Assembly (NCBI GenBank): GCA_000989765.1
Contig: LBOW01000001.1
Location: forward strand, 118,538-182,537
Direction of reading: 5' to 3'
Origin: Candidatus Woesebacteria bacterium GW2011_GWB1_33_22
Lineage (GTDB): Bacteria; Patescibacteriota; Microgenomatia; UBA8517
Length of the DNA stretch: 64,000 nt
The notes under the pieces were generated by a model. That model worked only from the letters and a program-made list of their open reading frames with translations. It searched no databases and was not told the DNA's origin. Positions within the stretch are counted from its first letter, which is position 1. Every line of letters begins with the position of its first letter. Positions 31,038 through 32,752 of the stretch are shown here, piece by piece. Both the position numbers and the translations under genes were made by a program.

Positions 31038-32028
31038 AGCTGTAATTGATGAAATAAAAAAAAGAAATTTAGCTTTTGAAATTCATTGGTTGGGAGCTAA
31101 ATATAAAAATCTTTCAAATCCAGGTATTGTTTATCATGTTTTTGAATCAGGAAAAATTGAGAATAAGTTTACTAAAAATACAATTTTTAACTTTCTCAAA
31201 ATTCCATTAGATTTTTTTAAGGGATATAAAATTATTAAGGAAATAGAACCCAATTTAACACTCTCACTTGGTAGCGCTGTCGGTGCAATGTCTTCTTTTT
31301 GGTCATATTTTTTAGGAATTCCTGTAATAATTCACGAGCAAACAGCCGTAGCAGGTAGAGCCAATATAATTTCTTCCTATTTTGCTAAAAAGATTTTAAT
31401 TTCAAGAGAGAGTTCTCAAAAATACTTTAACAAATTAAAAACAAAATTAGTCGGAAATCCTATAAACAATGAGATTAAAAAATATATAGGCTTTCCTAGA
31501 AATCAAAGAGTTAAATCTATTTTAATAACTGGAGGTTCAAGGGGATCTACTTGGATTAATAATGCCATAAAACCGATTCTCCCTAAACTGCTAGAAAGAT
31601 ATTATTTAATGCATCAAACTGGAGAAAAGAACCTAGAAAAGTTCAAAGATATAAAAGATGACAAATATTTTGCATTTGGTCAAATTGATCCAAAAAATAT
31701 GGCAGAGATTTTTTCAAGAGCTGATATTGTAATATCAAGAGCCGGAGCAAATACAATTTCTGAGCTTATAGCTTTAAAAAAACCTGCTATTTTAATTCCT
31801 ATTCCATGGTCTTTTAATGATGAACAACAAAAAAATGCAGAATATATGGAAAGTTTAGGTTTAGCTAGAATTTTAGCTCAAAAGGATTTGTCAGCACAAA
31901 AACTGCTTTCTGTAGTAGAAAGTATGATCGAAGATTATCCTGTAGTTATTAAAAAAACAGCAAATTTGGTAAGTAATGATATTCATGCTTCTGAAAAGTT
32001 GGTAGATATATTGGAAAAGTACTTGTAA
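30985..32028 (+). CDS. murG: UDP-GlcNAc:lipid I N-acetylglucosaminyltransferase MurG
   Basis: LITGSHAGTTAEA N-terminus (GT28) and C-terminal GANTISELIALKKPAILIP motif. Confidence 0.85.
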   Translation: MEQKRLLITGSHAGTTAEAVIDEIKKRNLAFEIHWLGAKYKNLSNPGIVYHVFESGKIENKFTKNTIFNFLKIPLDFFKGYKIIKEIEPNLTLSLGSAVGAMSSFWSYFLGIPVIIHEQTAVAGRANIISSYFAKKILISRESSQKYFNKLKTKLVGNPINNEIKKYIGFPRNQRVKSILITGGSRGSTWINNAIKPILPKLLERYYLMHQTGEKNLEKFKDIKDDKYFAFGQIDPKNMAEIFSRADIVISRAGANTISELIALKKPAILIPIPWSFNDEQQKNAEYMESLGLARILAQKDLSAQKLLSVVESMIEDYPVVIKKTANLVSNDIHASEKLVDILEKYL

Positions 32029-32045
32029 GGTTCAACCTTTAAAGG
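32022..32045. repeat. REP-like palindrome copy 3 (degenerate left arm), overlapping the murG stop and lying upstream of RAYT
   Basis: cttgtAAGGTT-C-AACCTTTAAAGG. Confidence 0.7.
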
Positions 32046-32056
32046 TAGTATTAATT

Positions 32057-32734
32057 ATGCCTGCTAAAAATAGTATAAAACTTGATATTGAAGAAACTTA
32101 TTATCATGTTTATAACAGAGGTGTTGATAAAAGAGTTATTTTCGAAGATGAGCAAGACTATAAGGTCTTTTTAAATTATTTGAGAGAATATTTATCACCA
32201 CCTAAACCTCTAAGTGAGTTAGAAGTTGAAGTGACCTTAAAAGGTTCAACCTTTAAAGGTATACCACGATTATTAAATAATTATTTTGACCAGATTCATT
32301 TATTGGCGTATTGTTTAATGCCTAATCATTTTCATTTGTTAATTAAACAAAAAGATATTGGCATGATGAAGAATTTTATGAGATCTCTTGGTACAAGGTA
32401 TTCAGTTTATTTTAACAAGAGATATGAAAGATCTGGAAGCCTGTTTCAAGGAATTTATAAGGCAGTAATTATATCTAATGAGAATTATTTATTGCATTTA
32501 TCTAGATATATTCATTTGAATCCTGCTGAATTGAGAATTGAACTAGATGATGCCTATTCATCATATGGAGATTATACTGGATTAAGAAATACTACGTGGA
32601 TAGAATCTGAAACAATTAAATCATATTTTTCTAAAGAAAATAATAAAATAACATCATATAAATCTTTCGTTGAAAGCATGATCGATAAAAAGGATAATGA
32701 ACTTATTCAAGGGTATACATTAGACTTACCTTGA
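32057..32734 (+). CDS. IS200/IS605-like Y1 (HUH) transposase of the REP-associated (RAYT) type
   Basis: YHVYNRGVDKRVIFEDEQD N-terminus, HUH motif PNHFHLLI and catalytic-Tyr region YIHLNP; its stop codon lies inside the downstream REP copy. Confidence 0.75.
   Translation: MPAKNSIKLDIEETYYHVYNRGVDKRVIFEDEQDYKVFLNYLREYLSPPKPLSELEVEVTLKGSTFKGIPRLLNNYFDQIHLLAYCLMPNHFHLLIKQKDIGMMKNFMRSLGTRYSVYFNKRYERSGSLFQGIYKAVIISNENYLLHLSRYIHLNPAELRIELDDAYSSYGDYTGLRNTTWIESETIKSYFSKENNKITSYKSFVESMIDKKDNELIQGYTLDLP
32235..32259. repeat. REP-like palindrome copy 4, in-frame inside the RAYT gene itself
   Basis: CCTTAAAAGGTT-C-AACCTTTAAAGG (1 mismatch); encodes LKGSTFKG. Confidence 0.85.
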
Positions 32735-32752
32735 AAGGTTGAACCTTTAAAG
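32729..32752. repeat. REP-like palindrome copy 5, containing the RAYT stop codon
   Basis: CCTTGAAAGGTT-G-AACCTTTAAAG (1 mismatch). Confidence 0.85.

Follow-up and report, generated by a model that had tools for sequence, protein, structure and literature searches.

A RAYT/TIRYT-like Y1 gene in a Woesebacteria division and cell wall cluster, and its cognate hairpins within coding sequences

How does a gene derived from a mobile element come to lie inside a conserved cell-division operon, and how do copies of its repeat come to lie inside other genes? Both questions are raised by a 64,000-nt stretch from a tiny groundwater bacterium, Candidatus Woesebacteria bacterium GW2011_GWB1_33_22 (contig LBOW01000001.1, positions 118,538 to 182,537; hereafter the window), in which a Y1/HUH tyrosine-transposase-like gene stands between murG and ftsQ of the division and cell wall (dcw) cluster, and a palindrome occurs at the gene and within three others. 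For the way in which the repetitive extragenic palindrome (REP) type of repeat is copied and kept up by Y1 enzymes, the window's system offers an unusually clean case: the copies are few; essential genes with many orthologues allow empty sites, proto-sites and filled sites to be distinguished; and the gene of the enzyme itself contains the cognate signal. We consider it fairly probable that the system pairs a vertically inherited enzyme, of the REP-associated tyrosine transposase (RAYT)/TIRYT kind, with cognate hairpins that have replaced coding DNA. The open reading frame (ORF) and its two diagnostic motifs are as follows.

32057..32734, + strand: Y1/HUH tyrosine-transposase-like gene, 225 aa (Pfam, NCBIfam, AlphaFold2/Foldseek, alignment, dN/dS)
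32321-32341, + strand: HUH motif PNHFHLL (H91, H93), within the Y1 ORF
32507-32524, + strand: YIHLNP with the presumed catalytic Tyr151, within the Y1 ORF

The initial annotation had read this ORF as a Y1 transposase with HUH and YIHLNP motifs, and a profile search bears it out. Pfam Y1_Tnp (PF01797) matches the protein at 39.6 bits, above its gathering score of 23, with an alignment that covers the HUH-to-tyrosine part only (residues 79-153, profile positions 40-119). Across 23 aligned homologues, H91, H93, Q131, Y151, H153, N155, S168 and S169 are invariant and P156 is conserved at 90% or more. The motifs are NHFH, LFQG (the FQ motif, with Q131), YIHLNP and YSSY (the SS motif); the tyrosine motif thus has the Y---NP form of class 2 TnpAY1/RAYT proteins, not the Y---Q form of IS200. 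An AlphaFold2 model (pLDDT 84, pTM 0.82) places the HUH motif on strand 91-98 and the tyrosine on helix 142-158, the arrangement of the Y1 fold, and its best Foldseek match in the PDB is 4er8_A, the Escherichia coli RAYT with a REP hairpin (E 6.6e-6, TM 0.66); the ISDra2, IS608 and IS200 transposases (TnpA) rank below it. The ORF at 32057-32734 is therefore a Y1/HUH protein with a RAYT-like fold. The RAYT class assigned to it at the outset stands on the structural match and the Y---NP motif, but not on the NCBIfam RAYT equivalog (REP_Tyr_transpos, NF047646), which scores 38.6 bits under a cut-off of 80, and the motifs fit TnpAY1 subclass 2.1/TIRYT. A database search with the protein returned more than 7900 matches, a large family across the Candidate Phyla Radiation (CPR) that lies outside the published RAYT surveys; the best 120 of these are 217-269 aa long and 54-100% identical, and the organisms named among them are Microgenomates or Woesebacteria.

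The cognate signal is a palindrome of 25-27 nt, (A)CCTTnnAAGG-N5-CCTTnnAAGG(T), which as single-stranded DNA (ssDNA) can fold into a hairpin with a stem of 10-12 bp. With up to three mismatches, CCTTTAAAGGTTSAACCTTTAAAGG matches the window six times (at 5877, 25086, 32021, 32235, 32729 and 37984), against an expectation of 0.00 in 100 dinucleotide-preserving shuffles, and its 10-mer half-site CCTTTAAAGG is found six times against 0.17 expected. Likeness between the copies ends at about 27 nt. Folded as ssDNA, the hairpins have energies from -3.5 to -10.8 kcal/mol, with the dispersed copies the most stable. The palindromes reported on either side of the Y1 gene are present here and at many related loci. 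The four other sites reported in the window are all found as well, but 32235 lies inside the Y1 ORF and the remaining three lie in frame within long ORFs; all six copies overlap coding sequence and none is truly extragenic. Three of the six belong to the gene itself.

32021..32045, no strand assigned: upstream hairpin ACTTGTAAGGTTCAACCTTTAAAGG, with a C centre; its end is 11 nt upstream of the ATG, and the murG stop codon TAA (32026-32028) lies within it
32235..32259, + strand: internal hairpin CCTTAAAAGGTTCAACCTTTAAAGG, in frame, codons 60-68 (TLKGSTFKG)
32729..32753, no strand assigned: downstream hairpin CCTTGAAAGGTTGAACCTTTAAAGT, with a G centre; holds the Y1 stop codon TGA (32732-32734) and abuts the ftsQ ATG at 32754

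Variants of (TA)CCTTnnAAGG-N5-CCTTnnAAGG(TA) occupy the same three places in the window and in three homologous loci (L007, L009, L011): about 11 nt ahead of the start codon, at gene nt 178 and at or just past the stop codon. In the set of loci obtained along with the family alignment, this three-copy layout recurs in the subfamily nearest to the window. The gene has its own palindrome on both sides in these four loci, in L044 and in many of L111-L190, and most homologous loci that carry the upstream hairpin have it at -11 to -14 from the ATG. Stems and loops vary between lineages and match within a locus: L111 carries GGGGTCACCC three times and L121 carries GGGTTGTTCC three times, while AGCCT and AGGCT stand in L113 and GTTAC and GTAAC in L114. 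Internal and flanking copies are identical at 22.3 of 25 positions within loci and at 18.2 of 25 between loci; over the central 9 nt the figures are 8.44 and 5.82, and none of 20000 permutations reaches 8.44. The hairpin is linked to the gene by these lineage-specific variants, which appear upstream of, inside and downstream of homologues in unrelated gene contexts. The opposite centre bases noted earlier (C upstream, G downstream) hold in the window but are not a conserved property, since both flanking copies are C-type in the sister species, where the downstream centre is C.

The internal copy is also part of the enzyme. It encodes TL[KQ]GxxF[KQ]G, a motif conserved in the subfamily, in which G63 and F66 are invariant, and in the structural model this segment is a predicted beta-hairpin with strands at 57-61 and 64-68; the loop of the DNA hairpin encodes the two variable middle residues. 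In more distant subfamilies the upstream and downstream copies match each other, and in seven loci (L122, L150, L156, L130, L124, L178 and L115) a third copy, its loop matching those of the flanking copies, lies at gene nt 459-502 instead of nt 178. That position is in the 3′ third of the gene and, in L115, past the tyrosine motif.

The remaining three copies in the window lie in other genes, each within 26 kb of the Y1 gene.

5877..5901, + strand: copy in the glycosyltransferase family 4 (GT4) ORF 5489..6619, in frame, encoding YFKGSTFKG
25086..25110, + strand: copy in the MurL-Mur ligase fusion ORF 24690..27146, a perfect palindrome, in frame, encoding PLKVEPLKV
37984..38008, + strand: copy in the isoleucyl-tRNA synthetase (IleRS) ORF 37179..40076, in frame, encoding TFKGSTFKV

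These copies occupy the same length as the coding DNA found at the site in relatives. Members of the GT4 family read YFKNPYFKF, YFKNTFLKF or YFENRLFRS at the hairpin site, and close homologues of MurL read AKVVNLLKIEG or VKSPNPINITG, all of equal length. The IleRS of the window reads ERTFKGSTFKV where its equal-length counterparts have ERVFAGMDFKV (L007), ERVLKGINFKV (L191) and ERVFKGITFKI (L194), and in comparison with PDB IleRS sequences it has no 9-residue insertion. Measured against the 27-nt consensus, the empty IleRS sites match at 11-17 positions, and the window and L109 at 25. Insertion of the dispersed copies is ruled out for all three genes, as lengths are unchanged relative to orthologues or PDB IleRS sequences. 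A shared protein motif is likewise ruled out as the cause of the repeat: it is read in two frames (FKGSTFKG and PLKVEPLKV) and synonymous positions are conserved, so the repeat is a feature of the DNA and not of the protein.

Once present, the copies have hardly changed. The following comparisons set each hairpin against its flanks.

MurL site, window against L037: hairpin 0/25 differences; flanks 20%
IleRS site, window against L109: hairpin 0/25 differences; flanks 18.7%
GT4 site, window against L036 (protein 61% identical): hairpin 1/25 differences; flanks 34%
Internal copy, window against L007: hairpin 0/25 differences; flanks 22%

With the three gene-associated copies compared with L044, these sites make up seven orthologous comparisons, in which 3 of the 175 hairpin bases have changed and the flanks have diverged by 7-34%, about 20% overall.

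We now turn to the position of the gene within the dcw cluster, where two genes bound it.

30985..32028, + strand: murG, left boundary of the insertion (Pfam Glyco_transf_28 and Glyco_tran_28_C; comparison with L044)
32754..33449, + strand: ftsQ-like gene, right boundary of the insertion (homologues named FtsQ by some sources; synteny)

The window has the order murG, Y1 gene, ftsQ-like gene, ftsA, ftsZ, and its relatives share the synteny murG-ftsQ-ftsA-ftsZ. In four more distant Woesebacteria (L191-L194) the murG-ftsQ junction contains neither a Y1 gene nor a hairpin: murG is followed directly by ftsQ in L191 (9 bp gap), L193 (79 bp gap) and L194 (overlap), and L192 has just a NUDIX gene on the opposite strand. 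These Y1-free junctions show the gene to be an old insertion into the dcw cluster, and the spacing comparison thereby upholds the insertion that had been proposed for this site. A 75%-identical homologue also lies between murG and ftsQ in L007 (Woesebacteria MFD02832), as does a 91%-identical one in L044 (GW2011_GWB1_33_38, the sister species); homologues of 58% identity lie in unrelated gene contexts. The exact protein occurs on 23 contigs that were read, with a common gene context in the six places shown and in those collapsed as similar. Between the window and L044, the Y1 gene has a dS of 0.49, equal to that of murG, and its dN/dS of 0.10 compares with 0.14 for murG, 0.17 for ftsQ and 0.05 for ftsA. 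Consequently, this is a working gene that has been passed on by vertical descent, rather than an insertion sequence that is still active: on the contigs read it is now single-copy, it is syntenic in three species and it is under purifying selection. A gene derived from a mobile element can thus settle stably within a highly conserved cell-division operon.

The upstream hairpin was said to overlap the murG stop codon, and in the window TAA 32026-32028 does lie inside it; this overlap is secondary. In L044 a 233-aa ORF (L044:2125-2826) stands between murG and the Y1 gene, and the upstream hairpin contains the stop codon of that ORF. The window's lineage has lost about 714 bp, by which murG became fused in frame to the last three codons of the 233-aa ORF (KYL, stop; window 32010-32030 against L044). 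The 233-aa ORF has no Pfam match, and a GG...HGDIDC motif suggests a nucleotidyltransferase. At this junction L007 has two additional small ORFs, of 172 and 113 aa.

The same evidence bears on whether the 733-bp unit 32021-32753 is an autonomous IS200-like insertion sequence that landed in the dcw cluster, with the subterminal hairpins as its left and right ends. IS200 is about 700 bp long, so that the unit is near it in size. The Y1 fold of a transposase, hairpins at both ends, the lack of a second gene, the relatives with an empty murG-ftsQ junction and the unrelated gene contexts of distant homologues would all suit such an element. An autonomous element accords poorly with a single locus that three species share at one position, where synonymous divergence equals that of the neighbours and dN/dS is 0.10, with ends that are the same palindrome rather than distinct left and right ends, and with hairpin copies elsewhere that have no gene. 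The tyrosine motif is also of the Y---NP type (class 2, RAYT) and not Y---Q (Table 1, PMC6006769). We regard this explanation as very improbable.

How, then, would the copies have been written? On the reading that we prefer, the ORF would encode a single-copy HUH/Y1 ssDNA nuclease-transferase of the RAYT/TIRYT kind, gained at the murG-ftsQ junction by the ancestor of a small Woesebacteria clade. Further copies of its hairpin, about four per genome, would have replaced equal lengths of coding DNA rather than inserting, at proto-sites, stretches with codons that were already similar to one frame of the palindrome (FKGSTFKG or PLKVEPLK), and the converted copies would then have been kept almost invariant. 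We infer that the copies were written by conversion. In the most likely mechanism, the Y1 protein would nick hairpins, or hairpin-like sites, that are exposed as single strands, and short-patch repair would follow with another hairpin as the template, in the manner of gene conversion; such templated repair would both homogenise existing copies and convert proto-sites. It fits better than insertion because lengths are unchanged, proto-sites are preferred, dispersed copies are perfect, the three copies at the gene change in concert and copy number is low.

In its full form, the proposal is that a RAYT-type enzyme overwrites partly similar coding DNA with its hairpin, by nicking and short-patch templated repair, and homogenises the copies, one of which encodes part of the enzyme. 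We advance this tentatively, as possible though rather doubtful. If true, it would be a new route by which Y1-associated repeats spread and persist, one that fits genomes in which intergenic space is nearly absent, and would directly support the old idea that REPs evolve by gene conversion (Higgins et al. 1988, as cited in PMC3733652). The preferred reading has precedents: REPs lie in frame inside subclass 2.4 tnpAREP genes (PMC6006769), and intragenic REPs have been described, including in tRNA synthetase genes (PMC3733652).

Several observations weigh against the preferred reading or set the system apart from canonical REPs. The E. coli RAYT recognises REPs by a guide tetranucleotide, GT[AG]G, 5′ of the hairpin; the feet here read (n)TA-CCTT or GTA-CTTG, and no conserved GTAG or GTGG was found at them. 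Canonical REPs usually number more than 100 per genome and are extragenic, whereas the sister assembly GWB1_33_38, which serves as a proxy for the window's genome, has seven exact-core copies (one each in MurL and IleRS, three that belong to the gene and a further two), numbers are in single digits in the other CPR genomes matched, and the window's copies all overlap coding sequence. The initial annotation therefore went too far in calling this the defining RAYT/REP arrangement. In sequence, the family is as distant from 4ER8 as from IS200-type TnpA, and a profile search of PDB sequences gave ISDra2 as its sole match, a marginal one (E 0.08), so that the family cannot be placed by sequence alone. 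Binding and cleavage of the hairpin as ssDNA are presumed for the Y1 protein by homology to the E. coli RAYT and the IS608 TnpA. The copies could be so constant because of selection for some role in the host and not because of a conversion drive. Finally, the IleRS proto-site and hairpin are separated by about 8-10 differences, no more than the background divergence, and stepwise mutation with selection could therefore have produced that copy.

These points lead to an alternative in which the palindromes are sites bound as duplex DNA, operator-like or, as with parS, centromere-like, by a Y1 protein recruited by the host or by another factor; they would have arisen by ordinary mutation at compatible codons followed by selection, with no DNA copied. 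A number of about seven per genome, positions in essential genes with lengths unchanged, near-invariant orthologous hairpins and a copy within the gene of the presumed binding protein are all what such sites would show. Each CCTTnnAAGG 10-mer is itself palindromic, and a palindrome may act as one hairpin or as two independent 10-bp duplex palindromes. The discriminating cases divide evenly between the two, 10 to 10: ten keep arm-to-arm pairing and lose self-symmetry, and the other ten keep self-symmetry at the cost of arm-to-arm pairing. Since the pooled hairpin set had been selected for pairing, we also examined pairing on the unconstrained N5 spacer. Positions 1 and 5 are complementary in 72 of 99 sequences (shuffled mean 34, maximum 50) and positions 2 and 4 in 57 of 99 (shuffled mean 32, maximum 48), with several pair types in use. 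Compensatory pairing thus extends into the loop, and this argues for the hairpin. Single-stranded hairpins are the substrates of known Y1/HUH proteins, the closest structure is that of a RAYT bound to one, and a rise from 17/27 to 25/27 consensus matches, independently in three genes, would be hard to reach by unguided mutation. Overall, we judge duplex sites to be an unlikely explanation.

At some homologous loci the gene is bordered on both sides by doublets or short arrays of the 10-bp palindrome, with a period of 15 nt.

L020: 475-545 and 1242-1325
L140: 2069-2120 and 2815-2866
L155: 69-112 and 2961-3004
L146 and L160: further arrays

They resemble REPINs or bacterial interspersed mosaic elements (BIMEs), or else three half-sites in a row, and bear on the question of hairpin against duplex half-site; with at least three 10-mers at the 15-nt period, L155, L146 and L160 agree with the duplex alternative.

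The hairpins could instead act as RNA, in the dcw operon and in other mRNAs, as stabilisers, processing sites, attenuators or occluders of ribosome binding sites, with a link to the Y1 gene that is historical. Every copy is located within or between genes of the same direction and is therefore transcribed, and the AAAGG of the upstream copy's 3′ arm could be a Shine-Dalgarno sequence, since that copy ends 11 nt before the ATG. REPs also affect mRNA stability, according to work cited in PMC3733652. A scan for terminators and promoters found nothing at any hairpin that exceeds the shuffled expectation and no terminator-like T tract at any copy, the 5′ untranslated region folds no better than shuffled sequence (z = -0.6), and a pure RNA role does not predict that the hairpin should accompany the Y1 gene at many loci whose neighbouring genes are unrelated. 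An RNA role is accordingly most improbable; like an active IS200-like role, it is less likely than duplex sites.

Several further observations concern the genes and genomes that carry the hairpins. The MurL fusion at 24690-27146 is an 818-aa protein that joins MurL (PF26299, PF26298; UDP-MurNAc-L-Ala-L-Glu epimerase) to the middle and C-terminal domains of a Mur ligase; at its cluster position, L007 has separate genes for a Mur ligase and an Asp/Glu racemase. Of the MurL homologues P0397 and P0391, one that is 74% identical reads PLKVAPLKV, which is the hairpin with an altered centre, and one that is 54% identical reads LTVEPLKVYG at the hairpin site, perhaps a copy that is partial or that arose independently. 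The IleRS ORF contains a 31-nt (AAATCA)n-like repeat twice (38466-38496 and 39299-39329; 833 bp apart, 97% identical). A second palindrome family, CCTGCCTGCCGGCAGGCAGG, GC-rich in a genome of about 31% GC, occurs at 25319-25338 and 60227-60246 of the window, with 0 expected by chance; both copies are in frame, in the MurL fusion (LSAGRQG) and in ORF 59928..60515 (LPAGRQD), and exact copies lie at L018:5263-5282 and L135:1355-1374, two loci with Y1 homologues. GC skew is positive across the whole window, which therefore contains no replication origin or terminus. The hairpin is also carried by metagenome-assembled genomes labelled 'uncultured Gammaproteobacteria' (CAYHHA01, CAYGXQ01, CAYNWD01, CAYISM01, CAYHEJ01). 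Some genomes so labelled have Y1 homologues 33-53% identical to that of the window, and one has a GT4 protein 61% identical; for those that carry the hairpin the label is probably wrong. The loci from genomes of this label are as follows.

L018, L026, L036, L045, L053, L056, L061, L065, L075, L078 and L091

How does the system compare with those already described? The closest published class is the TIRYT of TIRtrons (Di Nocera et al. 2013, PMC3733652), which is the same as TnpAY1 subclass 2.1 (Quentin et al. 2018, PMC6006769) and RAYT Group 1 (Bertels et al. 2017, PMC5581495). Subclass 2.1 is defined by NH[YF]H, FQ, Y[IV]HLNP and an SS tail, with a median length of about 238 aa (Table 1, PMC6006769), and by motif comparison the window's protein appears to fit it. 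Subclass 2.1 was reported without a hairpin or REP near the gene (PMC6006769). A C-terminal helix-turn-helix (HTH) domain, Bac_DnaA_C-like, is a further criterion for it; a Pfam search with E up to 0.01 found no HTH domain at residues 160-225 of the window's protein. TIRYTs share with it the signature motifs, a length of about 225-240 aa with a C-terminal tail, a low gene copy number and a gene flanked by a matching repeat present about ten times per genome, and some of their TIRs are self-complementary. However, their common TIR motif is GGGGWSAS, while the window's flanks are the hairpin-forming CCTTnnAAGG-N5-CCTTnnAAGG, its gene has a third, in-frame internal copy, and its host belongs to the CPR, outside those surveys.

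The canonical RAYT/REP system, or REPtron (E. coli YafM with REP/BIME, 4ER8, subclass 2.2), is the best structural match and is likewise single-copy and vertical, with its own flanking palindromes and gene-less copies elsewhere. The window's system differs in that it lacks the GT[AG]G foot, has about seven copies against more than 100, is intragenic instead of extragenic, shows no REPIN or BIME doublets in this genome and scores below the NCBIfam equivalog cut-off. TnpAY1 subclass 2.4 (PMC6006769) also has a cognate REP within the transposase gene with the frame intact, but in the window the copy falls between helix A and strand 2 and so precedes the HUH motif, and copies of its type are fixed across a large subfamily, encode a conserved beta-hairpin and co-vary with the flanks; other CPR subfamilies have their third copy at gene nt 459-502. 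Rickettsia palindromic elements (RPEs) and intragenic REPs, in the account of Ogata et al. (2000) given in PMC3733652, are also in-frame palindromes in seemingly functional genes, including those of aminoacyl-tRNA synthetases. In that account they add residues (most REP inserts being dimers or clusters of 20-30 amino acids), whereas the window's three copies replace an equal length. Finally, the TnpA proteins of IS200/IS605 elements (IS608, ISDra2) share the HUH/Y1 fold and recognise subterminal hairpins as ssDNA, but these elements are multi-copy and mobile, with distinct left and right ends and a Y---Q motif, none of which applies to the window's gene.

A literature search found no account of such a system in the CPR. 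REPs that flank RAYT genes, in-frame REPs in subclass 2.4, intragenic REPs and RPEs that add residues, and TIRYTs with low-copy flanking repeats are already known. Three features seem to be new: the presence of hairpins in a family that is found widely across the CPR and has a signature like that of subclass 2.1; a third copy that is fixed, co-varies and codes for a conserved beta-hairpin before the HUH motif; and dispersed copies that replace coding DNA of essential genes with no change in length and are near-invariant thereafter.

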